A program made the position numbers and the translations under genes. 64,000 nucleotides of DNA from Planctomycetota bacterium (GTDB taxonomy: Bacteria > Planctomycetota > Phycisphaerae > UBA1845), in NCBI GenBank assembly GCA_024276605.1, contig JAJRWX010000020.1, positions 4,512 to 68,511 on the forward strand, written 5' to 3'. Every line of letters begins with the position of its first letter. Position 1 is the stretch's first letter. Shown one piece after another: positions 23,470 through 57,234 of the stretch. Below the pieces are notes generated by a model. The model did no database searches. It was not told the origin of the DNA and worked only from the letters and a program-made list of their open reading frames with translations.

Positions 23470-23889
23470 GTGATCGCCAGAGTATCGATATTCTCTGGGC
23501 CACATTACAAAATAGCGTTGCCGGATTGTTGCCAGCGGGATCGTATGTCTGAATTTGAGAAGCGTTTTGACATGAACCAGTTAATTCCCCGAGTTTCCAT
23601 ATTCCATTTACTGTTGATGGCTACACTAATATGTATTGGGGTGAGCAATGACAAATGCCGAGGCTTTGTGATTGGTTCTACCAAGGCAAAAACAGCCGGA
23701 CCAGCTAGCCCATCTTTCGCCATTAAAGTGAGTGGGCAACCACTTAAGATTTACTCAACATCATACGTATCGAATAAATGGATCACGGCTAACGTCTCAC
23801 AGCATGAACCCGGACTGAATCCGGATCACTGGGAACTACGAATCACCCTAAAAGATCATACACTGACGGAGATATGGTTTCCTTGGTAA
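23470..23889 (+). CDS. Hypothetical membrane-anchored protein, possibly the N-terminal part of the next ORF
   Basis: 139-aa ORF with one TM segment (VSIFHLLLMATLICIGV). It is in the same frame as 23905..25398, separated by a single TAA plus 15 nt. Confidence 0.4.
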   Translation: MIARVSIFSGPHYKIALPDCCQRDRMSEFEKRFDMNQLIPRVSIFHLLLMATLICIGVSNDKCRGFVIGSTKAKTAGPASPSFAIKVSGQPLKIYSTSYVSNKWITANVSQHEPGLNPDHWELRITLKDHTLTEIWFPW

Positions 23890-23904
23890 TCAAACGCCAC
23901 AATA

Positions 23905-25398: not shown

Positions 25399-25415
25399 GG
25401 CCTGTTTATGTTTGA

Positions 25416-26870
25416 GTGGTCACAAAAAAAAGGCCTGAGAATCCTGCCATGATCGTAATGATTCATTTGGTCATCACGGCACTTTGCGCATTTGAATGTC
25501 TCTGCGCGTTGGCAAACATTCGCGGCAAACTGCCGAAGCTTATCATCTTCGGCGGGATGGGAATCATCCACGGCATTGTACCCGTACTTACACCGGTCGG
25601 CTTGCGTTGGTCGGGATTGAGCGAAAGCACCCACACTCATGCAGCGTTTCTGGCACTGATCGGTATGATCATGTTATCGCTAGGATGGCGGCTCTTTGAG
25701 CGGTTTCACGTTCAGTGGCCCGGGCTGTCCCCGGGGTTGCTCAAGGCCATCGAAAGCCCATCCGGACAACGATGGTTACGGCGAATATTCTGGACAACGA
25801 GCGTACTCAGTGTTACGGCCTGGCTGGTGAGTTTGGTGGCGTCGGCTGGATCATTGCAAGCGGCGTTGCATGCTGGACGATTTCAATATCGAGGCGAGGG
25901 GCAGGTGTATTGGCGTGCAATTTTGCAGCATGTGGCCAGTCTGATTGTCATGCCGGGGTTCGTATGTTTCTTTCTACCTCGGCGATATTGGTTGATCGGT
26001 GTTGTGTTTGCAATAACGGCAACGGCGTTCGTGTTCTGGTCAAGCCAGGGCGCACGCGGGTTGTCGCTCGGCGTGCTAGGCGGGATGGTGCTCGGATATT
26101 CTTTTCGTCACAAGTTCGCCGTTCACCGTTTTATACTTCTCGTAATATGCTCTGCGGCAATCGTATTACTTTCCACCTCTATGTACGAAGCGCGGAAGGT
26201 CATGGCGAAGGCCTCGTTCGGTGAGATAGTGGGAATTGTCTTTTCAGCGGAAACATATCGCGAGGCGCTGAGTCGTGACCCACTCAACTACCATCAAATC
26301 CTTGCGGCTGCCGTCGAACATTTCCCGAGGGACCATCCATACCTCAACGGGGCCACTTATCGCCGCATATTGATGTTCTATTTACCGCGCACTTATTTCT
26401 CGTCGATCAAACCAGCTGACACACATAACACATTTGCAGAAGTCGTCCAAGGTAAACGTACGACAAACACAATCCCACCGACGATGATCGGCGACGGGTA
26501 CATCAATTTCTGGGGATTCCCAGGTGTCGTGATCACCATGTTCATCAACGGCATCCTGTTCGCCTACGCGTCACAGAAGATGCGCGAGCATATGCTTTTT
26601 TTCCTCGTGTTTGGCGCACCGTTTATTCGGCTAGCACTTCTTGCAATCCGTGGCTCACCCTATGAGATAATGGCCCTGTTGATTAGCGGTACCGTCCTTG
26701 TCTGGATGCTATCACTAGGAACAGGCCTGTCATTCGTAACCACGCAACAGATGATTAGAAAAACAAACTACGACGCTTCCTCACCGACACGTCGCACGCG
26801 ACCGAAACGGATTGGCTCGGGCAGCAAACGATCAAGACAAGGGTTTTTGGGTGTGGACCAGCGCGCCTGA
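25416..26870 (+). CDS. Multi-pass membrane protein, Wzy/O-antigen-polymerase-like by context
   Basis: 484-aa ORF with roughly 10 hydrophobic segments, located between glycan genes. The function is inferred from context only. Confidence 0.5.
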   Translation: MVTKKRPENPAMIVMIHLVITALCAFECLCALANIRGKLPKLIIFGGMGIIHGIVPVLTPVGLRWSGLSESTHTHAAFLALIGMIMLSLGWRLFERFHVQWPGLSPGLLKAIESPSGQRWLRRIFWTTSVLSVTAWLVSLVASAGSLQAALHAGRFQYRGEGQVYWRAILQHVASLIVMPGFVCFFLPRRYWLIGVVFAITATAFVFWSSQGARGLSLGVLGGMVLGYSFRHKFAVHRFILLVICSAAIVLLSTSMYEARKVMAKASFGEIVGIVFSAETYREALSRDPLNYHQILAAAVEHFPRDHPYLNGATYRRILMFYLPRTYFSSIKPADTHNTFAEVVQGKRTTNTIPPTMIGDGYINFWGFPGVVITMFINGILFAYASQKMREHMLFFLVFGAPFIRLALLAIRGSPYEIMALLISGTVLVWMLSLGTGLSFVTTQQMIRKTNYDASSPTRRTRPKRIGSGSKRSRQGFLGVDQRA

Positions 26871-26893
26871 GAATATCATAGAATTCGGAGACA

Positions 26894-28270
26894 ATGACAC
26901 AAAAGATGGTAGCTCCCGCATTACGACAAGTTTGGCGAAATGCCTGCCAGTCCGGCTTATCACCACGACTGCGCTCCGAAGCGGGTTGGGTGCTATGCAA
27001 CAAAATGGGCGAGTTTGGTCTTGCCTTTGTAGAACTGAAGTTGCTAGCCGCGATCATGGGACCGCTTGTGTTTGCGGAATACCGTCTCGTTTTGACCGCA
27101 TTGCTACTTCTCGGTCATGCCTTAATCATGCCGATGCAGCAGGCGTACTTGCGATACAGTCACACCGCCCACAACGAGGGGATGTCGCAGGCGGCTGATC
27201 GGATTGCGAAGCGCTGGTTGACTGTCGTAACGCTTAGCGTCGTCGTGCTCGCCGCTGTGACATCGAAACCACTATCTCATTGGCTCGGGTTACATCCTTG
27301 GACCCTACTAGCCGGCGGGTTTGTGTTTTTGGGGAATCGATGGCGAACGTTCACATTGCAAACTTTGGATTTCAACCGGCAGCGACGGATCGTAGCGATC
27401 CTCAACATCGGATTCTTGGCCACCGCATTAGTGACAGTCGTGGTGGTTTTACGCATGTCGTCCGTGTCAGCTAGTACGGCACTTTTCAGTTATGCCTCGA
27501 TCGCAGTCGTCTTCGGCATCATCGGATTAATGTACCTTCCGCGTCACGAAGCGGGTTCATCTGTGCCCGGCAAGAGCGGATTGCCTAATTTAATCCGACA
27601 GTTCGGCGTACCATACGCCATGCTACTCATCTTTCAATGGGTATTCACTTTCTCCGAGAGGTACATACTCGGCATTCAATTGGATTTGAATTCGGTGGGT
27701 ATTTATATCGCGGCATACATGGTCTGCGGTTTTCCGTTTATGATGGGTTTGGCCTTTATCAAAGGTTTTTTGCTTCCGATAGCCTATCAGCGCTCTAGCG
27801 ATACCAGCGACGCGGGGCGTTTTTGGTCGGCTAACGTAATCCTACTGACGGGCATAGCCGTATATATCGTTGTGGGCGCATTAACACTACCGATATACGG
27901 ACTCTTTGGCACAAGGATTCTAGAATTGATGACGAGTTCGGAATACACCTTGTCTACAAGCACGCTGGTTTGCCTAGCTGTCGCACGGTATTTTCAGTGC
28001 CTCGGACCGCTCCTCGAATCGATCTTCGCCGTACACAAGCGAGTCACAGGATTTCTAAGATACCGTTTATTAGGCGGCTTAGTGGTTATTCCGTTATTGT
28101 GGTTTGCGATCAATTGGAAAGGCGTGGATGGAGCGGCGCAGGGAATTCTCGCAGCCAATGTGGTATTCATTGTTGCCGTAACATTAGGTCCGGGTGGTTG
28201 TCTGGGTATGATTCAAACGGCCCGTCGCAACGCATCAAAGGCTACGGAACCCGAAACACGCGCAGTATAA
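26894..28270 (+). CDS. Second flippase-family (MOP/Wzx-like) membrane protein
   Basis: 458-aa multi-pass ORF with the same architecture as 21778..23085. Confidence 0.6.
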   Translation: MTQKMVAPALRQVWRNACQSGLSPRLRSEAGWVLCNKMGEFGLAFVELKLLAAIMGPLVFAEYRLVLTALLLLGHALIMPMQQAYLRYSHTAHNEGMSQAADRIAKRWLTVVTLSVVVLAAVTSKPLSHWLGLHPWTLLAGGFVFLGNRWRTFTLQTLDFNRQRRIVAILNIGFLATALVTVVVVLRMSSVSASTALFSYASIAVVFGIIGLMYLPRHEAGSSVPGKSGLPNLIRQFGVPYAMLLIFQWVFTFSERYILGIQLDLNSVGIYIAAYMVCGFPFMMGLAFIKGFLLPIAYQRSSDTSDAGRFWSANVILLTGIAVYIVVGALTLPIYGLFGTRILELMTSSEYTLSTSTLVCLAVARYFQCLGPLLESIFAVHKRVTGFLRYRLLGGLVVIPLLWFAINWKGVDGAAQGILAANVVFIVAVTLGPGGCLGMIQTARRNASKATEPETRAV

Positions 28271-28273
28271 GTA

Positions 28274-29458
28274 TTGATGATGAAGTTCACTGTTCTCATT
28301 CCGGCGTTCTCGTATGCAGTAAAGCACGTTCGTCCGGGCCTGTCGTTGCACCTAGCCTGCCAAGCGTTGGCCTTACGCCGGGTCGCGGAGCCGTTGGGGA
28401 TACGCGTAGTCGTAGCATCAACGCCGGACGAAGACTCGCCGGGGCTTTGGGATCGGATACGCGATGCATTTGATGCTGAGGACATCTACCTGCTAGATGA
28501 CGGGTACACGTCGCTAGCCCAAGCTACTAGTGATCTCGTTAAACAACATGGTCGCGTAGTGGCTCATATTCAGGGTACACGGCAGTTGCGCACATTGGCT
28601 GGGCTGAGGAAGGAGTTTCCCGATCGTGTACGACTCGTCTTCACCGTACATTCATTTCGCAACGCATCCTGGAAACGACAGCCATATTCGTGGATTTTAT
28701 CACACATGCTGCGGCGTTCCGTCGATCATACGGTGTTTCTATCGCCGTACGCGATGAATCAATTTGTAAACCACAAAGCCGTGTTCAACGCCGGACGTGG
28801 CAGCATCGTCCCCTTGGGAATCGAATGGGACTGGGAACAAGGCTGCGAGAAACCGGACTTGAGTTTTCTTGATGAGAATGTACGAGGCTCTATCGAAGAT
28901 GAAGCGGCGTTCAACTTTGTTTACCTAGCAGCCTTTAAGCCCGGCAAAGGGCACGACTGGATGTTTCGCAGCATGGCGCCGGTGTTTCGTCGCCACCGCA
29001 ACGCACGCCTGGTTCTACCGGGTTGGGGAAGCGATCAAATTCAGACGTCGTTGCGTACTCTGGCGAGTCGCCTGGACATCGCATCTCAAGTTCTTTGGCC
29101 GGGCAGGATCAGCCGGCAAGACGTTGTAAATCTGCTTCGTTGTTGCCATGCCGGTATCATTCCGTCCCGATCAGAAACATTCGGACAGTGCATCGTGGAG
29201 TCTATGGCTGCCGGGCTTCCGGTGTTGGGAACGCGTAAAGGCGTGGGCGAGTGGCTCATTATGGATTATAGCACAGGTATTGGCGTCGGGTACGGCGATC
29301 AGGATGCTCTTGCCCGCGCGGCTGATTATTGTTTGACGCACCGGGAAGCAGCTTCCGCGATGGGCAAACGCGCGGCTAAGCTGGTAAGGTTGGCGTTCGA
29401 CTGGGATGAGATCGCGGCTTCTCACCTTCGGATTTATCAGTCTCTTTTTCAAGCATGA
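28274..29458 (+). CDS. Glycosyltransferase family 4
   Basis: 394-aa ORF with the GT4 region PSRSETFGQCIVESMAAGLPVLGTRKGVGEWL. Confidence 0.85.
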   Translation: MMMKFTVLIPAFSYAVKHVRPGLSLHLACQALALRRVAEPLGIRVVVASTPDEDSPGLWDRIRDAFDAEDIYLLDDGYTSLAQATSDLVKQHGRVVAHIQGTRQLRTLAGLRKEFPDRVRLVFTVHSFRNASWKRQPYSWILSHMLRRSVDHTVFLSPYAMNQFVNHKAVFNAGRGSIVPLGIEWDWEQGCEKPDLSFLDENVRGSIEDEAAFNFVYLAAFKPGKGHDWMFRSMAPVFRRHRNARLVLPGWGSDQIQTSLRTLASRLDIASQVLWPGRISRQDVVNLLRCCHAGIIPSRSETFGQCIVESMAAGLPVLGTRKGVGEWLIMDYSTGIGVGYGDQDALARAADYCLTHREAASAMGKRAAKLVRLAFDWDEIAASHLRIYQSLFQA

Positions 29459-30327
29459 GTCGAGATGAGGTTGTGGCTAGCATGAGAAAAACGGACTCAA
29501 TGATCTGCTTCGTACACGTCGAACGAGCGGGCGGTACGACGCTACACACGATCTTCCGTAACAACCATCCGTTCGGGTACCTGCCACTGACACCTCGTTC
29601 GATTTGGGCAAATGAGGATGACCATGTGTTCACGCTCACTCAGGCTCAAAAGTTCTTTAGGCTGTGTCCATTCGCGGTGGGATTCGGCGGGCACACGGTT
29701 CGAACCTACATTGATTATGCTTCAGTGTTGGGCAAACCGGTTCGTTACATCACTTACCTGCGCGATCCGATCGCACGGTATATTTCCCACTACAATTACC
29801 ATCGCAACGTCAGCGGGATCGATTGGACGCTCGATGCCTTTCTCCGTGAGAAGCGGCTGCACAATTTCATGACCAAACGACTCGCAGGTTGCTTCGACGT
29901 AGAACGCGCAAAAGAACAGCTTGAACAACGCGTAGCATTCGTCGGGCTTACTGATCGGTTTGATGAATCACTCCTGTTACTTCGCGCCGAGCTTGGCTTG
30001 CCGGAACTCAACATTTTCTACGAAAAACAAAATGCCAGTCGCATCGCCCACTACGAAAAAGACCCGGAGCTTCAGAAAGATGAGACGCAACAACGAATCA
30101 GAGAAGTCAACGCGTTAGATATCGAGTTATATGATTTCGCGAGGAACGAACTCTACGCGAAATACGTTCACCGATTTGGGCCTGGCTTAGATCAGGCCGT
30201 TGAGGATTTCCAAGAGGTCAACCGTACCTATACATTCAACAAAGTACGGAGATTATGCTGGTCGGCATTTCGGTATCTGGGCTACCGGAACCTGGAATAC
30301 GCGATACACAAGCTTTATCCGGTGTAG
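29455..30327 (+). CDS. Sulfotransferase family protein
   Basis: 290-aa ORF. 5'-PSB-like FVHVERAGGTTLHTIF and 3'-PB-like YITYLRDPIARYISHYNY. Its ATG overlaps the upstream stop (ATGA). Confidence 0.7.
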   Translation: MSRDEVVASMRKTDSMICFVHVERAGGTTLHTIFRNNHPFGYLPLTPRSIWANEDDHVFTLTQAQKFFRLCPFAVGFGGHTVRTYIDYASVLGKPVRYITYLRDPIARYISHYNYHRNVSGIDWTLDAFLREKRLHNFMTKRLAGCFDVERAKEQLEQRVAFVGLTDRFDESLLLLRAELGLPELNIFYEKQNASRIAHYEKDPELQKDETQQRIREVNALDIELYDFARNELYAKYVHRFGPGLDQAVEDFQEVNRTYTFNKVRRLCWSAFRYLGYRNLEYAIHKLYPV

Positions 30328-42208: not shown

Positions 42209-45200
42209 TCAAGGTACTGGTTGCCAATCACCAAGCGCTGGCATTGCATCAAGTATTACGATGTCCTCTCCTCCGAGGAGAGGAGGGAACAGGTCATCTG
42301 GATCGGGCGTTCGGCCTGCGGCACAGGGATCGAAGATATAGACCTGGACTCCATTGAAATATAACTCATGCCATGGAAATGCGTCGTGCCAGCTACCACT
42401 ACCTGGTTTGATACGCCACTCAAAGGGACTAAGAACGCCGTTGACGCAGGTTTGCCGAAACTCGAAGGTAATGTGAGCATCAATCGCAGGGGCAGCGGTT
42501 ACACATGGATTTCCACCGACCAGATCAAACTGAACTTCGCTGATGGAGTTGCTAACATGGGTCAAAACAGCGGATAGTGTATTTCCATTCGCACCATTCG
42601 CGGCTGTGGCGACGCACTCCGGTGCGGCAGTGGCGGCAATACAGTCGGTACAGAAACTCGGACAAACTTGTCCCGATGGACATGTAACGATGTTGCTCGC
42701 TTGGTCGTTGTAGCCGAATGTTGTACCAAAGGATACCTGTGATCCCCGAACCCCGTTCGTCATCGCGCCACTCGCCATCTTCGGGCTGACGCTGACATGA
42801 TAGGACTGAAACGTCCGGCTTGGCGAACCAGCATATGCGAAGTTACGATTGTCGCCTTGGAAGAAGTCCGTAATGCCCGGTAGCCACCCTGTCGAAACCG
42901 CACGGCAGGCGATAAACGCCTTGTATCGTATCTCGACTTCGCCGTATTCAACGATATTAAGCAACACTTTGTCTTCGCAGGATATTCCGTTCTTGATAAA
43001 CGAGAGTGTCAACTCGACAGGACCGGGTGTCAGCGCTTCGACCCACGAATCGTAGGTATTGTACACACCCGTTGACAAGTAGAAATCATCGCGAAGATTT
43101 GCGCCCATCGGCACCAATACCCAGTCATCGTTGAACGGGGCCGCTGCGGCGGGGTTGATCGCCAGCAGACGGACCGATCCAGTGCCTCCTGTTTGAGTAA
43201 TTGTGATTGCAGAACCCGCCAAAACTCCGTCGTCTTCGGGAAGAACGAAGGCATTACACGCAATCAGACCATTTAGCGCAATTGAAGTTCCATCTGCAGT
43301 CAATGGGGACGCATCCGCCTTGTCGGCAACCGGATCACCGGTAGCATCCAACTTGCCTTCATCGAAGTCGTTATTCGTCGCAACCTTCAAACCCGGCAGT
43401 GTTTCCTCCGCATTCTCAGCGATCCCGCCAATTTCCATGTCCACATCCACCACCGTGATCTTGACAATGTCCGTACATGTGCTCGGACCGTTTTCGTACT
43501 TGAGCGTCAGCGTCACATCACGAGCGGAGGCGCTTGCAACGACACCCTCTACCCAGACATTCATAGGCATGTCCGCCAGGGCATTGCACCCTGCTTCGCT
43601 GGGCGTGGCCCAGCAGGCGGGGAGGGTGATCGGGTCGCTACGATCTGGAGCTTTGTAGACCTTTACCTTGCTCGAACTGGTCGATAGGGTAACTTTCCAT
43701 TCGGTCGCACCCGAGACCGATAGAGTCAGCATACGAAGGTCATCTTCACCAGCCGTCGGAGAGCCTTCGTCCTTGTCAGGTGTTCCGTTGTTGTTGTCGT
43801 CATCATCATTGACGCACAAGAATCCCCCAGGGTTTTCTTCGTCTTCGTCCGAGATACCAGCCAAGTCTAAGTCCGGTTCGATCGCCTCGGCCATCTTTGG
43901 GCCGATAGTGATGTCAGACGGCGGACATTCGCGCTCGGCCATAGCGGTGTAGACGATGTAGTAAGTGCCGGGCTTTGTTGTGAGAATCGTGGCCACGGAA
44001 CCCGATCCTTTGACCGTCGTGCCGTCCGGTTTGGTAACGGTCCACTTGTAGTTGGGCGTGACTGCGGGAATGGGCATCTTTGCCGTACAGTCCACGCGCT
44101 TGATGCCGCCGCTGTCCACGACGCCGCTGGCGGTGAAGGTGATGGTGTCTCCGACGCAGACCGGATCGCGGTCCACATCAATCATCCCGCCGCTCAGTGA
44201 GCCATTGTCCAGGCACCCTTCGCAATCCTGCGAACAGCACTCGCCGTTTCCGCAGCACCGCTCCGGCGGGCAGCAGGTTGTCCCACCGCAGCATGGTTCA
44301 CTCGCGGTGCAACATCCCTCTCCGCAGCATTCGACTTCGCAGCAGTGATCGCCGCAGCATAAGGTTCCCGCAGCATTGCAGGGGCAGCAAGGGTCAGGAT
44401 TGTTGCAACAGGGATCGTTAGCACCTTCCCCGCAGCATGGGTCTGCCGCAACGAGCAAGATTGACGACGCTACAGAATCATCTTCATCAGCGGGGGCAAC
44501 GGCTGCTACTGCAGCGGCTGCGCAACACGGGTTGTCCGGGTTGCAGCAGGGATCGGGATTGCCGCAGCACGGGTCATTCGAGTTGCAACAAGGGTCATCG
44601 CTGCCACAGCATGGATTGTCTGGATTGCAACATCGATTCGGATTGCCACAACAGGGATCGTTCGAGTTGCAGCATGGATCTTCACTGCCACAGCAGGGGT
44701 TGTCAGGATTACAACAACGATCGGGATTATTGCAGCAGGGACCGCCCCCATTGCAGCACGGGTCCGGGTCTTCACAACAGGGATCGCCCTGACAGCAGCG
44801 GTCATAACAACAACCGCTAGCATCTCCTTCGCATTCATCGTATTCGCAATCGCCAGTAACCGAATACGGTGGGCAGTTGCAGCCCCAACCGGCTAGTGAC
44901 AAGCCCGTGCCGGGATCGCTGACGATGCGCGAGCCGTCACCGGTGACCTGGCCCGTGGCTACGATCTCGAAGCGCGATGTGCCGTGGTTGAAGCTCAGGA
45001 AGTACGCAATCGACCCGGCGGGTAGGCCGGACATGTTCGGGTAGGTGATTTGGATTGGTGGATCGAACATCGCGCCGCTCGGCTGGAGTGTCCAGGAGAA
45101 CGGCGGTGACGCACCGTCGGGGATCGGCATGGGGATGTCGTCGGCATGCACCTGGTTGAGGTAGATCGGCTGGCCGTCGGGCGCGGGTTGGCCACTAGCG

Positions 45201-48100
45201 AGCGTCATCGATCCGGCCTTGACAACCATCTTCAACCCCTCCATGCCTTCGACCTTCAGGATGGTATCCGGGTCGCCGGGCGTGGCGCTGTAGGTGTTCT
45301 TCACGTTGTTGGGATTCAGCGACGGCAGCAGGACCGGCGTGGGCAGCGAGTTGGCCGCATTGGGAACAACGATGGTTTCGTAGTGAAGGGACGGGAAAGT
45401 GCCCGGCGGTTTGTCGCATTGAGGGGTTGTGCAGGTCGGACCGCCAATGTGGACCTGACCCGATCCGTCCACGTACAGATCGGTCTTCCCCGAACCGGAC
45501 ACATTGTCGAACTGAAATCGTCCGTTTATGTCGGTAACCGTGTCCGGCATGAACACCCCGCCGACCGCCAGTCTGCAAGTCGCGCCTCCAATGGGCTGAC
45601 TAGCGTTGTTGAGCACGATGCCGGAAAAGCTGGTGACCACGGCCTCGTCGCGCACCAGGCCAAAAATCACGAACCGGGCGGGCTGCATGGTCGGGTTGGC
45701 CACTGGCCTCACTTCGACGACGTTGTTGCCCCAGTCGGGGCCGAGTGTAAAATCTACCTGTGCGTGACCGGTGCGACCGGTATATACCGTCACGCTCTGC
45801 CCAGTAACGATGTTTGGCTGGCTGACCGGGTCCGATTCACGGCACGGGAGCGGCGAAGTGTTTCCTGTAACCTTTCCCCCTCCTTTTACAACGGTAAATG
45901 TCACCGGTACCGGGCAGACCCCGTTGCAAGCGTCGCTGACCCAGACGCGCAGCGGCTCCGGCGCCGGGCCGCCGGCTTCGGCTCGCTGGTTGTTGCCCGT
46001 GCCGATGTTGATCTGATTGACCGGCGCGGGCGCAGCCGAGGCGCAGAAGGCCACTGTCCCCGCGATGCTCATCGACTTCACCTCGACGCGGTTGTTCCCG
46101 CAACCAGCGTCGTAGCCGAGCCGCCAGTATGCGCGAGCCTCGCCATTGGCGTCGGTGCGTACCTGGAACATCATGCTGCCGGGGTCCATGTTGCCGGGCA
46201 TCGGCGTGATCTCCGCCGCCGTGGCCCCGAGCCGACCGTTGCTGCGTGTCACATCGAAGGTGACAACCTTGTTGACGAACGGGGTGCCGTCCGCGCGGGT
46301 CATCCGAACGACGATCGGTGATGGCAACACCGTCCCCATCTGACCAGTCTGAGCGTTACCGGATACGACGATCATTTGCGGCGTGCCGGAAGGAATCGCC
46401 ACCTGAGTGACGATAATCTGCTTGGTGATGGAGTTGCCCATCTCGTCCGTGGCCGTCGCGTCGATGACGGTTGGCTGGTCGATCGGTCCCAGGGGTACGC
46501 TCGGCGCGAAGAAGGTTCCGTTGTTGCCGATCCCGACATCCACGATAGCATCGATGGGATTGGCCATGTCTCCGTTGACGACGAGTTGTACCTGCAGGCC
46601 CATGAACCCGCTGAGCATATCGCCGACGCGGCCCGCCACATCGGTCGTAGTCGTGGTGATCTGCGCGGCGCCGGTGGGGAAGTCGATGAACAGATGCGGC
46701 GGCTCGGTATCGTGTGTCACGCTCGTAACCGTCGGAGGACTGCGGACACCGGCGCAGGTACTCAGGGTCGTGAAGAATATGTGGCTGACCCGATCGGAGA
46801 TAAGTGGTAGATCAATGGTGAAGGTGCCGTTGGAAACCGGGGCCGTGAATGTCCCCGCCGGACTCACCGTTTCGACCGATGTGCCTCCGGGGGCGTTGCC
46901 CGTGATCGTGACCGATGTAGCCGTCGTCATGGTCGTGTGTGCATTAAGTGTTGGCACGGGCGGCGGAATCAGCCCCGTCACCACCGGCGGCACAGTCGGA
47001 GCGATTAGCAACTCACCTGATTGATCGGCAAGGGCGTTACTGATGTTGATGGTGTAGGTGCCGCATTGGGGAAGCGGCGGCACAAAATTGTAAACGGCGG
47101 TCATGCCAAATGGCCCACCAACTCCCGATGTCGGGACTATGAGATTATTGCCGCCGTCTACAAGAAAGCAGGTGCGTTCGTTTATCCTCAAATCGGAAAT
47201 TATCTCATTGAAGTCGATTACGATTCTGTCGAACGAGCCTAGGAGTCCACTGCTTGGCTCTCGAATCGCGGTCACAATCGGCGGTGTTCCATCGGTAGTG
47301 GGAAGCGTTCGTCCTTCTGCCAGGCGGAAGATGGCCACATCTTGGGCATTGACAATTCCATCAACATTCAGGTCAGCCCGACTGTCGAACCTAGCCCCCC
47401 CTATAACACTCGGCAGGGCATCACGAATAATAATTCCATCCGGTCCATCGACCACGCCGTCTCGGTTGGCATCGCCTTGAAGGATGTTGATCCGAAACAC
47501 CGCCTGCCCGCCGCGAACACCGTCGCCCGAAGGCAGCACAGCACTCAAGGGATCAGCGATCTCGCCGTCCAGTTCGTTACCGACAATGTCCGTTACGGTG
47601 TAGTCCACCACCACCGTGAGCCGATCGTCGCGGACGGGTGAAGCGAAACTCACTGTCAGGATGTAGGTAACGACGTCGTAGGATGAGGTGAAATTGGTAA
47701 CGTTTCCAGCACCTACCGTCCATATGGTAATGGCCCCTGTTGGAATCGGAGTCGTTACAGGCTCCGTAAAGCCGATCTGAATTTCACGCAACCCAAGATT
47801 ATCCACGATCCATCTACCCGGCGTAGGCGACAGCCGATCAATCCGGGGTGGCGTTGCATCGAGGGCACGGCGTGGTATGGGCTTCCGCGACTTCTTGGAT
47901 AGTACGATTGACTGCCGAACGCTTGGTCGCGATTTTTTGGGCTTGGTTGATACCTGCGCGACCGAGTTATCGCCGGAAAGTTGTGTCTTTGACACATGCG
48001 GATCCAGCGGACCATCATTAAGTGTAGCAACAGCAAGCACATCAACACCAAATAACAGCGTTATACCAAACCATGACCAGAAGATGACACTTTTTATCAC
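42209..48100 (-). CDS. Giant (1963 aa) secreted multidomain protein with SbsA/Big-like Ig domains, a dockerin-type EF-hand pair, a CarboxypepD_reg-like domain, a Cys-Cys heptad region, a PKD-like domain and an unknown C-terminal region
   Basis: N-terminal hydrophobic anchor or signal. GDANRDGVVDGPD and ADLNVDGIVNAQD dockerin repeats. Big_1-like VVSGNAQTGQMGTVLPSPIVV. Its ATGA overlap with the upstream gene indicates an operon. Confidence 0.85.
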   Translation of the reverse strand: MIKSVIFWSWFGITLLFGVDVLAVATLNDGPLDPHVSKTQLSGDNSVAQVSTKPKKSRPSVRQSIVLSKKSRKPIPRRALDATPPRIDRLSPTPGRWIVDNLGLREIQIGFTEPVTTPIPTGAITIWTVGAGNVTNFTSSYDVVTYILTVSFASPVRDDRLTVVVDYTVTDIVGNELDGEIADPLSAVLPSGDGVRGGQAVFRINILQGDANRDGVVDGPDGIIIRDALPSVIGGARFDSRADLNVDGIVNAQDVAIFRLAEGRTLPTTDGTPPIVTAIREPSSGLLGSFDRIVIDFNEIISDLRINERTCFLVDGGNNLIVPTSGVGGPFGMTAVYNFVPPLPQCGTYTINISNALADQSGELLIAPTVPPVVTGLIPPPVPTLNAHTTMTTATSVTITGNAPGGTSVETVSPAGTFTAPVSNGTFTIDLPLISDRVSHIFFTTLSTCAGVRSPPTVTSVTHDTEPPHLFIDFPTGAAQITTTTTDVAGRVGDMLSGFMGLQVQLVVNGDMANPIDAIVDVGIGNNGTFFAPSVPLGPIDQPTVIDATATDEMGNSITKQIIVTQVAIPSGTPQMIVVSGNAQTGQMGTVLPSPIVVRMTRADGTPFVNKVVTFDVTRSNGRLGATAAEITPMPGNMDPGSMMFQVRTDANGEARAYWRLGYDAGCGNNRVEVKSMSIAGTVAFCASAAPAPVNQINIGTGNNQRAEAGGPAPEPLRVWVSDACNGVCPVPVTFTVVKGGGKVTGNTSPLPCRESDPVSQPNIVTGQSVTVYTGRTGHAQVDFTLGPDWGNNVVEVRPVANPTMQPARFVIFGLVRDEAVVTSFSGIVLNNASQPIGGATCRLAVGGVFMPDTVTDINGRFQFDNVSGSGKTDLYVDGSGQVHIGGPTCTTPQCDKPPGTFPSLHYETIVVPNAANSLPTPVLLPSLNPNNVKNTYSATPGDPDTILKVEGMEGLKMVVKAGSMTLASGQPAPDGQPIYLNQVHADDIPMPIPDGASPPFSWTLQPSGAMFDPPIQITYPNMSGLPAGSIAYFLSFNHGTSRFEIVATGQVTGDGSRIVSDPGTGLSLAGWGCNCPPYSVTGDCEYDECEGDASGCCYDRCCQGDPCCEDPDPCCNGGGPCCNNPDRCCNPDNPCCGSEDPCCNSNDPCCGNPNRCCNPDNPCCGSDDPCCNSNDPCCGNPDPCCNPDNPCCAAAAVAAVAPADEDDSVASSILLVAADPCCGEGANDPCCNNPDPCCPCNAAGTLCCGDHCCEVECCGEGCCTASEPCCGGTTCCPPERCCGNGECCSQDCEGCLDNGSLSGGMIDVDRDPVCVGDTITFTASGVVDSGGIKRVDCTAKMPIPAVTPNYKWTVTKPDGTTVKGSGSVATILTTKPGTYYIVYTAMAERECPPSDITIGPKMAEAIEPDLDLAGISDEDEENPGGFLCVNDDDDNNNGTPDKDEGSPTAGEDDLRMLTLSVSGATEWKVTLSTSSSKVKVYKAPDRSDPITLPACWATPSEAGCNALADMPMNVWVEGVVASASARDVTLTLKYENGPSTCTDIVKITVVDVDMEIGGIAENAEETLPGLKVATNNDFDEGKLDATGDPVADKADASPLTADGTSIALNGLIACNAFVLPEDDGVLAGSAITITQTGGTGSVRLLAINPAAAAPFNDDWVLVPMGANLRDDFYLSTGVYNTYDSWVEALTPGPVELTLSFIKNGISCEDKVLLNIVEYGEVEIRYKAFIACRAVSTGWLPGITDFFQGDNRNFAYAGSPSRTFQSYHVSVSPKMASGAMTNGVRGSQVSFGTTFGYNDQASNIVTCPSGQVCPSFCTDCIAATAAPECVATAANGANGNTLSAVLTHVSNSISEVQFDLVGGNPCVTAAPAIDAHITFEFRQTCVNGVLSPFEWRIKPGSGSWHDAFPWHELYFNGVQVYIFDPCAAGRTPDPDDLFPPLLGGEDIVILDAMPALGDWQPVP
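44210..44890 (-). repeat. Coding repeat: 26 vicinal Cys-Cys pairs, mostly CC-X5 heptads, including a 28-aa super-repeat
   Basis: Translation reads ...CCNPDNPCCGSEDPCCNSNDPCCGNPNRCCNPDNPCCGSDDPCCNSNDPCCGNPDPCCNPDNPCC, then an Ala-rich linker, then ...PCCGEGANDPCCNNPDPCCPC...CCGNGECCSQDCEGC. A 21-nt periodicity is visible in the DNA. Confidence 0.9.
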
Positions 48101-50445
48101 TGGATCATCCCCTCTTGCACAGAATGTGTCGCACTGCGACTACGAAGAACTATTGAGCCAGCGGTGACAACCAGTAATGCCATCATAAAGAGTCCCCACT
48201 CTGATACGGCAGGTATGGGTATTTCGCATTCACCCTGCGCGCTAGTGCATATCGAACAGCCACCCTGATGCGTGCCAATCAGCGCCGCGCATTGTGTTGG
48301 TGTCAAGCCGTCCTGGCACGTACTATCCAGCAAGCAGCAAGCACCCATGACATCATTCGCGCAAGTCGTGCAGGTGCCTTGAAAGCTGCCACCTTGCTCC
48401 GTACAAGCGGTTAGAGTAATGGCATCCTGACAAGTATCACTTGGCAGACAACATGCGCCGGTAGCTTCTGCACAAATCGACGCATCACCTTGATGCGTAC
48501 CGCCCAGCACCGCACACTCCGCCTCCGTGATCGACTCCTGACAGGTGCCGTCTGATAGGCAGCAGGCCCCGGTGACGCCAAACGCAGGCGGACCGCTTGG
48601 CGGGGCCGGAAAGTCATCGATGAAGGTGAAAGTGCCACCTGTCGCATCAGCCAGCGCCTGGAAAAAAGTCGCATCCGGCACACCAGTGCCTAGCAAGGTA
48701 CCCGTCTCCGCATCCACTTTCCCGGTCACACGACCTTGGCTCAGATCGCCCCAGAGCCTCGCCAACACAACAGCATTGCCGATCGTGTGATCGCACACCT
48801 TTTGTTGCCAGGAGTCGGGATGAAACTCACCGCATGCTTCGCCGAACGGGCTTCCACCAAACTGCGGAAGCAGAACGCGATCTCCGGCGCACGACCCGTC
48901 GCTATTGTTCTCCTCGCCGTCCGTGCTCACGCTGATTTCCAAGCTCTTGTCTGCAGCCACAGGAAAAGCCGCTAGCAGTGCGTCCACAGCACCGCACAAG
49001 GACTCAGCCAACGGCGTCGAGCCGGAGCAGTTCACTCCTTCCAGTGATTCCAATGCCACCTTGGCTGTTGCTTCGTCCACGAATCCGACCGTCAAGGGAG
49101 TTGGTTCCGTACCCGTGAATATCCAGACGGCCACGGACGATCCCACGGGATTCTGAACAAAGAACGACATCACATCGGAGATTGCCGTTTGGCGCGCCCT
49201 CTCGCATCGCGTCGTGCTGTCGTCGAACGGCGTTTGCATCGAACCCGTGCGGTCTAGCAGGATGATCCGGTGCATCGCGTGGCAGGGTGGATCGAGATCG
49301 GCGCAAAGCACGCCACCTGTCCAGACTTCAGTGGCGCCCTGGCATTGACTTTGCAATACATCCCGGCACGGGGCGAGGTTGGGATCGCAACACGCACCGA
49401 TGGGCAGTCCCGGCCCGCAACCGCCCGCTTCGATTTCATAGGCCGTAATGAGGTCGTTCGACACCGAGCCTCGGGGATCCGTCCGCACCCACACAACATC
49501 GGTTGGAGCGAAGGTGTTGGAATCGCAAGCCATATCTCCCAACCAACCATTTCCGTTGGCGAAAATAGTGCCGGGGAGCAACTCCCCAGAGACTGTATCC
49601 GGTGTCTTTCCGGTACGAATAATATGACTACCTCCGTCATCGGTCAGATACAGTTTGTCGCCACCAAAGATCAAGCCCGTATTGTTTGCAAGGTCGAAAT
49701 TGTTTGGGAGGCCAGCACCAACCGCTGTCGCATCGAACCCTTCAACGAATGTGCCATCCGTGCGAAATACACCTATGTTTTCGTTGACAGTATCGCTGCA
49801 CCAGATTTCGTCAGTAATTGGGTCATACAGCAAACCGTCGAGGCGGCAGAAAGTAAAGAACCTCTGTCCATTTGCAGGGTTGGTAATGTCGAAGGGGACA
49901 GTAAACATGAGTGTCACTGTGTCGTCGTCAAAATCCCAAAAGTAGATAGGCATGTCCGCGTTGACTACAGCGGGGTCGCCGCATACACCAAAGCCGGAAC
50001 CTCCGATGCTTCTTTGCGTACCGATCCATAAGCCGTTCCGGTTGGTGTCATACGACATCGCCGCTGGCCACTCGGCTATTCCCGTGTCGAAAGTGCTGAT
50101 GAGTGCCCCATCTACAGGTGAGATTGTGTATATGTTAGAGTCACTACACCGGTTGAAATACAGCTGCGTACCACCAAAGGCCAAACCAATGCTGCAAAAC
50201 TGGCTGCCAATAGTAGGCTGTGGTGATATGGTCGCAACAGGATCACCAACGGCTCCCCGTGCATGAGTCGCGCCCAACCCGAACACCGAAGCCATCAGGG
50301 TCAGCGCAAAGCCAACATGGCGCATACCATAGCCTCTCTGGAGCGTACAAGTTTCGCAACAATAAATGTGCATGTTGTTCCCTCTTTCAACAGACCTTCT
50401 AACCCTACCCATCAATCTTTCTAATGCTCCACTCGTCAAGGGCAT
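48097..50445 (-). CDS. Secreted vWA-domain protein with four GACC Cys-rich modules and an IPTL-CTERM-type anchor
   Basis: MIDAS-like ILLDRTGSM. The module GACCx(2-3)[DS]xC...GGxxQG...C occurs three times at the C-terminus and once mid-protein. The tail is IPIPAVSEWGLFMMALLVVTAGSIVLRSR. The likely start is ATG 50325 (MRHVGFALTLMASVFGLGATHA). Confidence 0.8.
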   Translation of the reverse strand: MPLTSGALERLMGRVRRSVERGNNMHIYCCETCTLQRGYGMRHVGFALTLMASVFGLGATHARGAVGDPVATISPQPTIGSQFCSIGLAFGGTQLYFNRCSDSNIYTISPVDGALISTFDTGIAEWPAAMSYDTNRNGLWIGTQRSIGGSGFGVCGDPAVVNADMPIYFWDFDDDTVTLMFTVPFDITNPANGQRFFTFCRLDGLLYDPITDEIWCSDTVNENIGVFRTDGTFVEGFDATAVGAGLPNNFDLANNTGLIFGGDKLYLTDDGGSHIIRTGKTPDTVSGELLPGTIFANGNGWLGDMACDSNTFAPTDVVWVRTDPRGSVSNDLITAYEIEAGGCGPGLPIGACCDPNLAPCRDVLQSQCQGATEVWTGGVLCADLDPPCHAMHRIILLDRTGSMQTPFDDSTTRCERARQTAISDVMSFFVQNPVGSSVAVWIFTGTEPTPLTVGFVDEATAKVALESLEGVNCSGSTPLAESLCGAVDALLAAFPVAADKSLEISVSTDGEENNSDGSCAGDRVLLPQFGGSPFGEACGEFHPDSWQQKVCDHTIGNAVVLARLWGDLSQGRVTGKVDAETGTLLGTGVPDATFFQALADATGGTFTFIDDFPAPPSGPPAFGVTGACCLSDGTCQESITEAECAVLGGTHQGDASICAEATGACCLPSDTCQDAITLTACTEQGGSFQGTCTTCANDVMGACCLLDSTCQDGLTPTQCAALIGTHQGGCSICTSAQGECEIPIPAVSEWGLFMMALLVVTAGSIVLRSRSATHSVQEGMIQ

Positions 50446-53222: not shown

Positions 53223-53897
53223 CTACTCAGCCATACCTCCACGCCAAACGCAAGGATTATTATTACCACAGCCGCCCTGCCGTGTGCAACTGTAATTAGT
53301 ACCATGACCACCTTCACAACTTGCGGCATTGCCATATTGGCAAACACAATTGCCGGTGGCCAACTGCCTGTAGTTCTTTTCGATAACAGATGCAGCTACT
53401 GTAGAATTCTTCGACGGCTCGAATACTGCGATGACAAGCCGATCATAGAATGACTCATCCATGTTGAAATCGAGCTCAGTTACCTCATCGGAAACAACAT
53501 CCCACCTTGTCGCATACTCAGCAGTGAAATCAAAGACGAATACGTCCTCGACCGTGCCGGCTGCGTTTTCTCGCGTCACTTCAATGATTCGATTGTTGTC
53601 GTTGTAATTATACACGTCCATGTAACCGTTGTCGTAAACTACCTTTTGAAGATTGCCTAGTTCATTATAGATGAATCGACCGCTATCCGACGCCAACCCG
53701 ATCGATGTAATGCGCCCGTGGTCCTCAACGAATACTTGTAAACTAATAGGCTCGGTCACCCGTGCATCATCGACAGACACAATGGTTTTGGCTGTCTCGC
53801 TAATTCCAGAAGTCTGACCGCATGCCTGAACAAATATGGATACCATTACCGCAAGCCCTAATACCAAAGTAAGACGCTGCCATGACTTAACCATCAT
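53223..53897 (-). CDS. Lipoprotein with a Cys/Gly-rich C-terminus, function unknown
   Basis: 224-aa ORF with a signal peptide and lipobox (LAVMVSIFVQAC). A strong RBS (GGGAGGA) lies about 8 nt upstream of the ATG. Confidence 0.7.
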   Translation of the reverse strand: MMVKSWQRLTLVLGLAVMVSIFVQACGQTSGISETAKTIVSVDDARVTEPISLQVFVEDHGRITSIGLASDSGRFIYNELGNLQKVVYDNGYMDVYNYNDNNRIIEVTRENAAGTVEDVFVFDFTAEYATRWDVVSDEVTELDFNMDESFYDRLVIAVFEPSKNSTVAASVIEKNYRQLATGNCVCQYGNAASCEGGHGTNYSCTRQGGCGNNNPCVWRGGMAE

Positions 53898-54156: not shown

Positions 54157-57100
54157 ATGACTGATCAGTTTTTCGACCAACCGATCCTCAACTCACCATA
54201 CGAGTACCCGCAACGACACTGGGAACTTGACGCGAGCGGCCAGCCGACCACCAACATCATCGATAAACGCCGCACTGCCGAGTTCATCACCCCTATTCCC
54301 AAGCCCAAGAAACGGAAGGGATCAAAGGCCCAGCAGGAGATGGTCTTCGACGAGGGCAAGGGACTCTCAACTGCCGAACAGCAATACGACACCATGTCGA
54401 TGGTCAACGACGTGCGTCGTCGTGTGAATATATGGCGTCAATCCACAAATCCAAACGAATGGCAGGTCACACCGGAGACTGCACGGCTTCTCCAACACTG
54501 GCGTCACCATAGCTTTAGCAGCTTGCGACCATTCTTCTGTCAAATCGAAGCCGTCGAGACAGTCATTTGGCTTACCGAAGTCGCGCCGAAACAAGGCAAG
54601 GAAATCCGAGCAGTACTTGACAATTTGTCAACGGCCAGCGAAGAGGCCAATCCCGGACTCGCTCGTCTCGCTCTAAAGCTCGCTACCGGAGCAGGCAAAA
54701 CAACGGTCATGGCCATGATCATCGCTTGGCAGACGATCAACGCTGTGCGACGACCTAACAGCAAGAAATTCACCCGGGGATTCCTCGTGGTCAGTCCCGG
54801 CATCACGATCAAGGATCGCCTGCGCGTCCTACAACCCAACGATCCGGACAGCTACTACCAGTCAAGAGAACTCGTTCCCGGTGACATGCTCGCAGACCTC
54901 GACCGAGCCAAGATCGTCATCACCAACTACCACGCTTTCAAGCTGCGCGAAACAATGGATCTGTCGAAGGGTGGCCGCTCACTGCTGCAGGGTCGCGGCG
55001 AAGAACTCAAGACTCAAGAGACTGAAGGGCAAATGCTGCAACGCGTCATGCCCGACCTCATGGGCATGAAGAACGTTCTAATCCTCAACGACGAGGCCCA
55101 TCACTGCTATCGTGAAAAGCCAGTAGGAGACGACGACGAAGGCGAATTGAAGGGCGATGAAAAGAAAGAAGCTGAAAAGAATCGTGAGGCTGCACGAGTT
55201 TGGATCTCTGGTCTGGAAACGGTTAGCCGCAAGTTAGGCGTCAACCGCATCTTCGACCTTTCCGCAACACCGTTCTTTCTGCGTGGTTCCGGTTACGCCG
55301 AAGGAACCCTGTTTCCCTGGACTACGACTGATTTTTCGCTAATGGATGCGATTGAGTGCGGCATCGTCAAACTCCCCCGCGTTCCCGTCGCCGACAATAT
55401 CCCCGGTGGCGATATGCCGAAGTTCCGCGAGCTATGGAAACACATCGCCAAGAAAATGCCCAAGAAAGGACGTGGCAAGGGTGCCAAACTGGACCCGTTA
55501 AGCATACCGGTCGAGTTACAGACGGCACTCGAAGCGCTCTACGGCCACTACGAAAAGACCTTCCACCTGTGGCAGGAAGAAGGCATCAGCGTACCCCCCT
55601 GCTTCATCCTCGTATGCAACAACACATCGACGTCGAAACTCGTCTACGACTATATCTCCGGCTTCCATCGCGAGAACGACGATGGTTCATCTACGCTTGA
55701 GAATGGTCGGCTCGCGTTGTTCCGTAATTTTAATGAACACGGCGATCCATTCCCCATGCCGCGTACGCTTTTAATTGATAGCGAACAATTGGAATCCGGC
55801 GACGCCCTCGACAAGAACTTTCGTCACGTCGCTTCGGACGAAATCGAACGCTTCCGCCGTGAAATCATTGAACGTACTGGTGATCGCCAACAAGCCGAGA
55901 AAATAACCGACCAAGAACTACTCCGCGAAGTCATGAACACAGTTGGCAAGAAGGACAGACTTGGCGGGGCTATCCGCTGCGTCGTATCAGTGTCCATGTT
56001 GACCGAAGGATGGGACGCCAACAACGTCACCCACATCCTTGGTGTTCGTGCTTTCGGCACTCAGCTTCTCTGCGAGCAGGTCATCGGCCGAGCACTGCGA
56101 CGCCAATCGTATGACCTTAATGAGGATGGCCTGTTCAACGTCGAATACGCTGATGTCCTGGGTATACCATTCGATTTCACAGCCAAGCCCGTTGTCGCAC
56201 CTCCACAGAAGCCGCGTGAAACCGTGCATGTTAAAGCCATGCGCCCCGAACGTGATCACCTTGAGATACAATTCCCGCGCGTGGAGGGCTATCGCGTCGA
56301 ACTTCCGGAAGAACGACTCACCGCCGAGTTCAACGACGACTCGACATTAGAATTAACACCCGATCTCGTCGGCCCGTCGATCACACACAATGCAGGCATC
56401 ATCGGCGAGGCTGTCGATCTGAATCTCATCCACACCGGCGACTTACGCCGGTCAACACTGCTGTTCCACCTTACGCAACGATTACTCTATACCAAGTGGC
56501 GTGATCCCAGCGAGGAACCCAAGCTCCACCTCTTCGGCCAACTCAAACGCATCACGCGGCAGTGGCTCGACAACCACCTCGTCTGCAAAGGTGGCATGTA
56601 CCCGGCACAACTGATGTACCAGGAACTCGCCGACATAGCCTGTGAGCGAATCACCGCCGGTATCACGCGCAAGCTCATTGGCGACAACCCCATCAAGGCC
56701 GTGCTCGACCCGTACAACCCCACCGGCTCGACAATTCACGTAAACTTCAACACGTCGAAAAAGGACCGGTGGGAAACGGATGCCCGACGTTGCCATGTCA
56801 ACTGGGTTATTCTCGACAGCGACTGGGAAGCAGAGTTCTGCCGTGTCGCCGAAGCACATCCGCGCGTTAAAGCATACGTCAAGAATCATAATCTTGGATT
56901 TGAAGTACCTTACAAGTATGGTTCCGAATCCCGCAGGTATCGGCCTGACTTCATTGTACTGGTAGACGACGGCCACGGTGACGGCGACCTAATCAACCTA
57001 GTCGTTGAGATAAAAGGCTATCGACGCGAGGATGCCAAAGAAAAGAAATCCACCATGGAAACATACTGGGTTCCCGGCGTAAACAATCTCAAGACCTATG

Positions 57101-57234
57101 GCCGCTGGGCGTTCGCTGAGTTCTGCGACGTTTACGCAATGGAGGCTGAATTTGAGGCGAAGGTCGAAGCCGAGTTTAATAAGATGATTGACGCTGTAGC
57201 CTCCGATGGCTCAACGGTGGAGGACAGCGTATGA
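54157..57234 (+). CDS. res: Type III-like restriction enzyme, Res subunit (SF2 helicase plus C-terminal PD-(D/E)xK-like nuclease)
   Basis: 1025-aa ORF. Walker A KLATGAGKTTVMA, DEAH box ILNDEAHHCY, motif VI-like QVIGRALRR, and a C-terminal YRPDFIVLV...LVVEIKGYRRED. Confidence 0.88.
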   Translation: MTDQFFDQPILNSPYEYPQRHWELDASGQPTTNIIDKRRTAEFITPIPKPKKRKGSKAQQEMVFDEGKGLSTAEQQYDTMSMVNDVRRRVNIWRQSTNPNEWQVTPETARLLQHWRHHSFSSLRPFFCQIEAVETVIWLTEVAPKQGKEIRAVLDNLSTASEEANPGLARLALKLATGAGKTTVMAMIIAWQTINAVRRPNSKKFTRGFLVVSPGITIKDRLRVLQPNDPDSYYQSRELVPGDMLADLDRAKIVITNYHAFKLRETMDLSKGGRSLLQGRGEELKTQETEGQMLQRVMPDLMGMKNVLILNDEAHHCYREKPVGDDDEGELKGDEKKEAEKNREAARVWISGLETVSRKLGVNRIFDLSATPFFLRGSGYAEGTLFPWTTTDFSLMDAIECGIVKLPRVPVADNIPGGDMPKFRELWKHIAKKMPKKGRGKGAKLDPLSIPVELQTALEALYGHYEKTFHLWQEEGISVPPCFILVCNNTSTSKLVYDYISGFHRENDDGSSTLENGRLALFRNFNEHGDPFPMPRTLLIDSEQLESGDALDKNFRHVASDEIERFRREIIERTGDRQQAEKITDQELLREVMNTVGKKDRLGGAIRCVVSVSMLTEGWDANNVTHILGVRAFGTQLLCEQVIGRALRRQSYDLNEDGLFNVEYADVLGIPFDFTAKPVVAPPQKPRETVHVKAMRPERDHLEIQFPRVEGYRVELPEERLTAEFNDDSTLELTPDLVGPSITHNAGIIGEAVDLNLIHTGDLRRSTLLFHLTQRLLYTKWRDPSEEPKLHLFGQLKRITRQWLDNHLVCKGGMYPAQLMYQELADIACERITAGITRKLIGDNPIKAVLDPYNPTGSTIHVNFNTSKKDRWETDARRCHVNWVILDSDWEAEFCRVAEAHPRVKAYVKNHNLGFEVPYKYGSESRRYRPDFIVLVDDGHGDGDLINLVVEIKGYRREDAKEKKSTMETYWVPGVNNLKTYGRWAFAEFCDVYAMEAEFEAKVEAEFNKMIDAVASDGSTVEDSV

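Follow-up and report, generated by a model that had tools for sequence, protein, structure and literature searches.

What does a bacterium build from a protein segment in which cysteines come in adjacent pairs, one pair after another? The question is raised by a 64,000-nucleotide stretch of contig JAJRWX010000020.1 from a Planctomycetota bacterium (assembly GCA_024276605.1; this whole stretch is hereafter the window), where a gene for a 1963-residue protein encodes 26 Cys-Cys (CC) dipeptides at residues 1097-1289 (window positions 44234..44812; 53 Cys in 193 residues). A preliminary description of the DNA had placed 26 such pairs within 44210-44890, a count that our translation confirms, and had offered three roles for them: a metal-binding thiolate sponge, a disulfide-laddered stalk, or a cross-linking segment. 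Our preferred reading, to which we give a probability of roughly one half, is that the segment is an extracellular cystine-stabilized repeat module, a fixed-length, protease-resistant and acidic rod or spacer between two chains of immunoglobulin (Ig)-like domains in a secreted, dockerin-bearing protein. Among the three roles the stalk is thus the one we favor, because of the extracellular context, the disappearance of Cys in particular pairs and the way the array is capped at its N-terminus, whereas the metallothionein-like sponge found no positive support.

The CC pairs fall into two blocks (Table 1), with spacings of 5, 6 and then twelve times 7 residues in block 1, 30 across an Ala-rich linker, and 9, 7, 10, 5, 5, 5, 7, 6, 6 and 6 in block 2. 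The heptad register first attributed to the whole region therefore holds for block 1, with its 12 exact 7-residue spacings, but not for block 2, where spacings range from 5 to 10 and the periodicity is loose. The division into two blocks by the linker is exactly as first described, and so are the two full copies and the partial third copy of a 28-residue super-repeat, which Tandem Repeats Finder (TRF) reports on the CC region as an 84-nt period (2.5 copies, 76% matches). When the 225-residue region was shuffled 20,000 times with its composition kept, the longest run of 7-residue spacings was 3, versus 12 observed, and shuffles of the entire protein gave a mean of 4 CC pairs versus the 26 present. 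Block 1 is 31% Cys, with 16 acidic versus 3 basic residues, not one aliphatic residue and a single aromatic one, and for this reason any fold it adopts must be held together by its cysteines. Three open reading frames (ORFs) of 110-138 residues overlap the region in other frames (44376..44792 and 44437..44820 on the plus strand, 44506..44838 on the minus strand); we regard them as by-products of the G+C-rich repeat that could be mis-called as genes. The G+C fraction is 0.59-0.61 over 44-48 kb, against about 0.52 elsewhere in the window.

The pattern lies outside the described domain families that we searched. Pfam and NCBIfam scans of the region and its sub-blocks at E<=10 returned only a chance MSSP match at 0.73, a profile search of PDB sequences reached no better than E 0.13 (a 34-residue toxin), and literature searches with the motif strings, or for vicinal-Cys repeats in Planctomycetes, found nothing relevant. 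The earlier statement that no characterized domain has this pattern is upheld across these sources. The suggestion of uniqueness was too strong, as the region belongs to a small family of about 50 protein clusters. We searched 1.84 billion representative proteins with a profile of six CC regions (E<=1e-3) and obtained 100 matches, about half of which were discarded as unrelated heptad low-complexity repeats without CC (xxDPxxx); the remaining ~50 genuine clusters have 5-37 CC pairs, and the largest array overall, at a genome locus (L009), has 52. The CC-containing profile matches had E values of 7.5e-58 to 1e-10, tblastn matches in genome loci ranged from 2e-91 to 8e-10, and a third homologue search added only 5 new sequences. 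We defined the family by at least five tandem C-C-[GN]-x-x-[DN]-[PR] units at 7-residue spacing, of which the window protein has 12. From 577 exact heptads in 49 proteins the consensus is C-C-G(58%)/N(24%)-S(50%)-x-D(69%)/N(21%)-P(79%).

Two forms of the array can be distinguished. The simple form, (CCGSxDP)n, occurs also outside Planctomycetota, for instance in a Nannocystaceae protein (P0006). The second form starts with C.C.RCCQG..CC..PDPCC and continues with the 28-residue super-repeat RCCNxDNPCCGSxDPCCNxxDPCCGxx; it is nearly confined to metagenome-assembled genomes (MAGs) of Phycisphaerae/Planctomycetota, plus 14 metagenome contigs, and its third heptad position alternates between G and N (151 alternating versus 28 non-alternating transitions). 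Several genomes hold two to three CC-array genes, and all named members are annotated as hypothetical except one cluster (P0027; 'RHS repeat-associated protein' at the Joint Genome Institute). Pfam domains found in the same proteins are dockerin, Ig-like, VWD, Dicty_CTDC, metallopeptidase and RHS, and in one case the catalytic domain of peptidylarginine deiminases (PADs). Many members have hydrophobic, leader-like N-termini, and the arrays adjoin CxDGxPCTxDxC modules of a type found in disulfide-rich extracellular proteins. The leader-like N-termini (as read from sequence), the extracellular domain partners and the surface-protein neighbors together suggest that the CC array is an interdomain element of extracytoplasmic proteins, and it apparently constitutes a previously undescribed family, a new variant of the extracellular cystine-stabilized repeats.

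Other Cys-rich elements occur next to these arrays. A conserved module, PCDPxCGDPCxCxxCDDGDPCTxDxC, follows many of them (P0004, P0017, P0025, L015, L017, L019 and others), and CCxDPCxCDPCC decads precede the arrays of P0007, P0032 and L006; both would be additional Cys-rich units, as yet without a name, that accompany the heptads. Tracts of the CCx3-5CC kind, similar to those of block 2, are present in other family members too. Two proteins from Logan assemblies (P0037 and P0046), possibly of eukaryotic origin, carry simple CCGSxDP arrays just before a GDPH...FD motif and VWD matches, so that the basic heptad may have an earlier origin or a wider distribution than the super-repeat form of Phycisphaerae.

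Constraint on the region can be read both from its own repeats and from its orthologues. The two full super-repeat copies are 79% identical in DNA, and of the 17 codons that differ between them 14 do so synonymously and 3 non-synonymously, with TGT and TGC both in use for Cys; the synonymous divergence first reported between repeat copies is thereby borne out. A degenerate-pattern scan of one genome per species gave 20 loci, three of which (L001, L002 and L003) are full orthologues, and a fourth (P0014) was obtained by protein search. These four are 57-63% identical to the window protein across most of its length, and retain 97-100% of the 59 Cys that lie between residues 1072 and 1296. In all four the spacing series of block 1 is identical and the linker measures 22-28 residues (45-70% identity). 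Non-Cys positions of the CC region are 59-73% identical, compared with 62-65% and 66-82% in the flanking globular domains. The CC segment therefore evolves like a fixed-length folded domain and not like a free-running low-complexity linker. Together with the synonymous excess, this Cys conservation supports the earlier view that the pattern is maintained at the protein level, and since independent MAGs share the layout, the suspicion of an assembly artefact falls away. The contigs of the two closest orthologues, L001 and L003 (JAZDCZ010000094.1 and JAZDCZ010000334.1), are labelled as a Gemmatimonadota MAG, which thus holds two copies, while all other relatives are Phycisphaerae/Planctomycetota; mis-binning is the probable explanation, and transfer a less likely one.

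The host protein has the make-up of a planctomycete-type secreted multi-domain protein, in keeping with the bacterial surface protein of the preliminary description, and a public protein collection contains an identical 1963-residue copy. Its first 25 residues are a probable Sec signal peptide, judged by reading the sequence. A Pfam scan found a Big_5 Ig-like domain (E 8.3e-8) and a type I dockerin (E 2.9e-4, with a score slightly below the gathering cut-off). In the subfamily of giant proteins a conserved beta-rich domain stands directly N-terminal of the array, a junction also seen in P0001, P0014, P0015, P0020, P0030 and P0051. Downstream of the CC region, AlphaFold2 (AF2) folded the remaining 663 residues into beta-sandwich domains at a mean predicted local distance difference test score (pLDDT) of 76, and of about 90 for the first 430 residues. 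A Foldseek search with residues 1301-1730 gave PAD3/PAD4 as top matches (E 1.6e-9 over ~300 columns), followed by generic Ig chains, and this part of the model includes a pair of domains resembling the non-catalytic N-terminal and middle domains of PADs. The acidic loop VNDDDDNNNGTPDKD is present in this PAD-like part and no catalytic domain follows it; a true catalytic domain of the PAD type (PF03068, E 3e-45) does occur in one other CC-array protein. In the window protein itself we detected no enzymatic domain. L001 and L002 align with it only to residue ~1557, with unrelated sequence beyond (residues ~1557-1963 correspond to 42212..43430), and residues 1692-1926 have a counterpart of 30% identity that closes another CC-array protein (L014); from these alignments the C-terminal module seems to have been swapped between proteins.

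How might the CC array itself be folded? AF2 on residues 1072-1314 with a 20-sequence family alignment returned a mean pLDDT of 48 (~40 in block 1) and a low-confidence short helix at the linker (residues 1194-1221), and the model was kept out of the fold search because matches to a low-confidence model would be meaningless. As AF2 gave no confident model, we used natural variants as mutagenesis data, denoting the first and second Cys of a pair C1 and C2. In nine lineages one Cys is left in each of two adjacent pairs, and in 9 of 9 the pattern is xC...Cx, that is, C1 is missing from the first pair and C2 from the next; none of the other three one-Cys-per-pair combinations occurs among them, and with equal odds for the four such an outcome has a probability of ~4e-6. 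The variants lie within arrays in L010 (twice), L029/30, P0013, P0019, P0029 and the P0132-136 group (with one residue inserted), and also in L016 (relative to its own paralogous copy), P0016 (with shortened loops) and P0007/L033 (at the array end). Cys were likewise lost in twos in the orthologues, C1075 with C1085 in L002 and C1264 with C1277 in P0014. Arrays that start with a single Cys have it at the C1 position (C-x-G-S-x-D-P-CC) in 16 cases and at C2 in 6.

These patterns fit a staggered ladder of disulfides. After Sec export the cysteines would be oxidized; no bond would form within a CC pair, and C1 of pair k would instead bond to C2 of pair k+1 (i to i+8). An xC...Cx variant fits such a ladder because exactly one C1(k)-C2(k+1) disulfide is removed, and a C1-only start fits it because a heptad with C1 alone is the predicted natural N-terminal cap. 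Each CC-x5-CC unit would form a two-residue mini-hairpin with the disulfide closing its open end, and the hairpins would be stacked as a meander ribbon with one disulfide per rung, the disulfides alternating between two faces. G-type and N-type turns would lie on opposite edges of the meander, whence the 14-residue sub-period seen as G/N alternation. With edges lined by Asp and Asn and no hydrophobic core, the ribbon would resemble a granulin-like stack of hairpins prolonged without limit. A bond between C1192 (last C1 of block 1) and C1223 (first C2 of block 2) would close the Ala-rich linker into a single long turn, and block 2 would be a more compact, irregular cystine-rich cap. Oxidation, connectivity, the rod shape and the spacer role are all what we infer from these patterns. 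Other connectivities were considered and set aside. A granulin-type register, from C2 of pair k to C1 of pair k+2, predicts losses of the type Cx..CC..xC, of which none was seen, and with rings in i,i+6 register (C2(k)-C1(k+1)) two Cys of every xC...Cx variant would lack a partner. Cys-Asp thioether cross-links, as in ribosomally synthesized and post-translationally modified peptides (the CX3D spacing recalls ranthipeptides), were rejected as well: no radical-SAM gene is present among the scanned ORFs, and the host is a giant, secreted protein.

Several observations sit uneasily with a disulfide ladder. Block 1 is without secondary structure in the AF2 prediction, a scan of window ORFs showed no gene of Dsb type, and many Phycisphaerae inhabit low-oxygen habitats. 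The region has an odd number of Cys (59), an extra single Cys (CCPCN) is conserved, and single-Cys losses occur in two cases (P0001 and L009). The C-terminal caps are heterogeneous, the next single Cys standing at +8 in 15 cases (nine of them internal degenerate heptads), at +7 in 11 and at +5 in 15. Independence of the nine lineages was judged by eye. Finally, the xC...Cx rule could also reflect a single CX5C bond in place of two vicinal disulfides.

This last point leads to the first of the alternatives, in which each CC pair closes its own eight-membered i,i+1 ring and the array is either a flexible beads-on-a-string linker or a strained, redox-switchable element. Self-contained pairs would explain isolated CC pairs before CTDC-like modules (P0011) and arrays that end uncapped, as at the end of block 1; many N-terminal caps also hold two single Cys as CxxC, able to pair with each other, and the xC...Cx variants could make a single CX5C bond. 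We nevertheless consider vicinal disulfides unlikely. They predict no preference among the four loss patterns, they leave the C1 bias of the caps and the strict G/N alternation unexplained, and they are rare and strained; in the CC motifs of granulins, conotoxins and TIL/VWF modules, neighboring Cys bond different partners.

A second alternative, also improbable in our view, is that disulfides made or exchanged between the array and other proteins of the envelope or matrix harden the surface layer, as in the chlamydial cysteine-rich outer-membrane complex, the Cys-rich domains of cnidarian minicollagens and the keratin-associated proteins. Planctomycete envelopes have historically been regarded as protein-rich, with high cystine and proline, a view for which our literature search retrieved no supporting paper. 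Neighboring genes encode further Cys-rich surface proteins (41 Cys in the upstream ORF), several genomes contain two or three such genes, and at least one thiol must be free because the Cys count is odd. Against intermolecular bonding, however, the Cys are lost in pairs that fit a fixed intramolecular geometry, and orthologues agree exactly in how many pairs they have and how these are spaced, a constancy that suggests a defined fold and not a generic sticky segment. Moreover, the module lies mid-chain, flanked by globular domains, and it is very rare and gives no hint of being a bulk envelope component. The keratin-associated proteins do resemble the array in their tandem short CC repeats with Pro, their ~30% Cys, their lack of regular secondary structure and, in part of block 2, their CC-x3 pentad spacing. 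They differ in period (5 versus 7 in block 1) and in being a eukaryotic intracellular matrix cross-linked intermolecularly to keratin; the Keratin_B2 profiles of Pfam do not match the CC region, whose relatives are Planctomycetota MAGs.

It is conceivable, if doubtful, that the arrays are not static cystine rods but an extracellular poly-dithiol device, at least partly reduced in the low-oxygen habitats of Phycisphaerae, that captures soft metals or metalloids as a polymeric metallothionein would, or 'cures' surface fibers into a cross-linked layer by disulfide exchange; to our knowledge no redox- or metal-responsive poly-dithiol material of such a kind has been described in bacteria.

We regard as very unlikely that the segment is an extracellular metallothionein-like sponge, whose reduced CC pairs would bind Cu(I), Zn, Cd or As(III) in thiolate clusters. 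Vicinal dithiols do chelate soft metals, and block 1 has the composition by which metallothioneins are classically recognized (15-30% Cys, few or no aromatics), sharing with them Cys near 30%, CC motifs, a near absence of aromatic and aliphatic residues, and a lack of predicted (in metallothioneins, ligand-free) secondary structure. Related MAGs come from groundwater- or sediment-type samples, according to their record titles, where thiols could stay reduced. Metallothioneins, however, are small cytosolic proteins with irregular C-x-C and C-x-x-C motifs, whereas this domain is strictly periodic and belongs to a probably Sec-exported protein of 1963 residues, with a signal-peptide-like N-terminus and extracellular domains, in which it adjoins disulfide-rich modules. 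No metallothionein family matched in Pfam or NCBIfam at E<=10, there is almost no His, and no metal-resistance or transport genes were present among the nearby ORFs scanned. Cluster ligands would not be expected to show strict periodicity, a constant copy number or Cys losses that are paired and position-specific, and the paired losses would point to disulfides rather than to a metallothionein.

A neutral low-complexity expansion or an assembly artefact without specific function is effectively refuted: the region is a tandem repeat at the DNA level and is overlapped by three spurious ORFs, yet its repeats share no more than 76-79% of their DNA sequence and differ mostly at synonymous positions, and independent MAGs and metagenomes show the same architecture with 97-100% of the Cys conserved.

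The array can be compared with other Cys-rich modules. The closest precedent is granulin/epithelin (PF00396), which has several CC pairs 5-8 residues apart and single-Cys flanks. In granulins the Cys of a pair bond different partners, and the chain forms a stack of beta-hairpins with a disulfide ladder and little hydrophobic core; this is the architecture we propose for the CC array, here open-ended. Granulin is a fixed 12-Cys unit, in contrast to the open-ended 5-52 pairs, strict CC-x5 spacing and bacterial origin of the array, and its motif (C-x5-6-C-x5-CC-x8-CC-x6-CC-x5-CC-x4-C-x5-6-C) is absent from the array, with no Pfam match. The granulin ladder also skips one pair, the second Cys bonding the first Cys two pairs ahead, whereas the paired losses and cap statistics would favor an inter-pair ladder in i,i+8 register, the AF2 model being of low confidence. 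Thrombospondin type 3 repeats are Asp/Asn-rich, disulfide-pinned, coreless and Ca2+-binding, and the minicollagen Cys-rich domains are short units ending in CC that can reshuffle their disulfides; the array may be akin to both and differs in spacing and consensus. CTDC-like and myxobacterial Cys-rich repeats are likewise tandem modules of bacterial surface proteins, are thought to be stalks and directly adjoin the CC arrays, but they are built of ~24-residue units with four single Cys that existing profiles match, while the CC heptads are paired and unmatched. The Dicty_CTDC profile (PF00526, CxDGxPCTxDxCxxGxC) has no match in the window protein, and in 4 of 49 family members it matches the adjacent modules and not the heptads. 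The CC module probably functions in the manner of a granulin-type module or a Cys-rich stalk. A bacterial example of a Cys-rich stalk is that of TraA in Myxococcus (PMC3325183).

The features of the host gene and of the ORF upstream of it are listed in Table 1. The host gene starts with a GTG, and its first 4 nt (GTGA) are shared with the stop of the upstream ORF. The upstream protein has three or four ~32-residue repeats of the form GACCLxDGTCxxxxTxxxCxxxGGxxQG and ends in IPIPAVSEWGLFMMALLVVTAGSIVLRSR, presumably an IPTL-CTERM-type sorting signal, while NCBIfam gave no match to this ORF at E<=0.01. Other neighbors are dockerin/Big_5 proteins, a Cys-rich VWA-like protein, HEAT-repeat and beta-propeller proteins, an extracytoplasmic function (ECF) sigma factor and a Ser/Thr kinase, and we take the locus to be a planctomycete-like surface-protein cluster. 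A short ORF with a single RHS repeat match adjoins it (53223..53897, minus strand), and a restriction-like 1025-residue ResIII helicase with an endonuclease domain is encoded at 54157..57234 (plus strand). The left half of the window (4153..12873 and 19345..30327) holds a polysaccharide-type cluster with several GT4 glycosyltransferases, two methyltransferases, an ABC-2 exporter pair, a heparinase II/III-like lyase and a Polysacc_synt flippase-like protein; three of its ORFs, of 435-497 residues, had no Pfam match.

Table 1. Features of the CC-array protein and of the ORF upstream of it, in order along the minus strand (window coordinates).
Feature	Residues	Window position	Strand	Basis
Upstream ORF, 782 residues, 41 Cys		48097..50445	-	weak VWA_2 match
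Host gene, secreted multi-domain protein of 1963 residues		42209..48100	-	ORF list and translation
Signal peptide (probable Sec), MIKSVIFWSWFGITLLFGVDVLAVA/T	1-25	48026..48100	-	read from sequence
Big_5 Ig-like domain and type I dockerin	81-179 and 209-257	47330..47860	-	Pfam
Beta-rich conserved domain, ending in AGWGCNCPPYSVTGDC	~934-1074	44879..45301	-	BLASTP to L001-L004
N-terminal cap with single Cys C1075, C1077, C1085 and C1090	1075-1096	44813..44878	-	
Block 1, 15 CC pairs, 12 exact heptads in succession	1097-1193	44522..44812	-	
28-residue (84-nt) super-repeat, two full copies	1129-1156 and 1157-1184	44549..44716	-	
Super-repeat, partial third copy		44522..44548	-	
Ala-rich acidic linker AAAAVAAVAPADEDDSVASSILLVAADP, 28 residues	1194-1221	44438..44521	-	
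Block 2, 11 CC pairs and 3 single Cys, ending in CCSQDCEGC	1222-1296	44213..44437	-	
Ig-like beta-sandwich chain after the CC region	1301-1730	42911..44200	-	AF2 and Foldseek
C-terminal beta-rich region	1731-1963	42212..42910	-	AF2, lower pLDDT

By itself the CC array resolves no long-standing question. The use made here of paired Cys losses in natural variants offers a way to deduce disulfide topology where structure prediction fails. If the proposed connectivity is true, this would be a coreless repeat protein in which a disulfide comes with every seven residues and rungs can be added without a set limit, a natural 'cystine ladder' rod that would be of interest to protein designers and materials scientists. 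If metal binding or cross-linking should prove true instead, the arrays would represent an unusual extracellular thiol chemistry in bacteria. The array would add a named module to the largely unannotated surface proteomes of the Planctomycetota.

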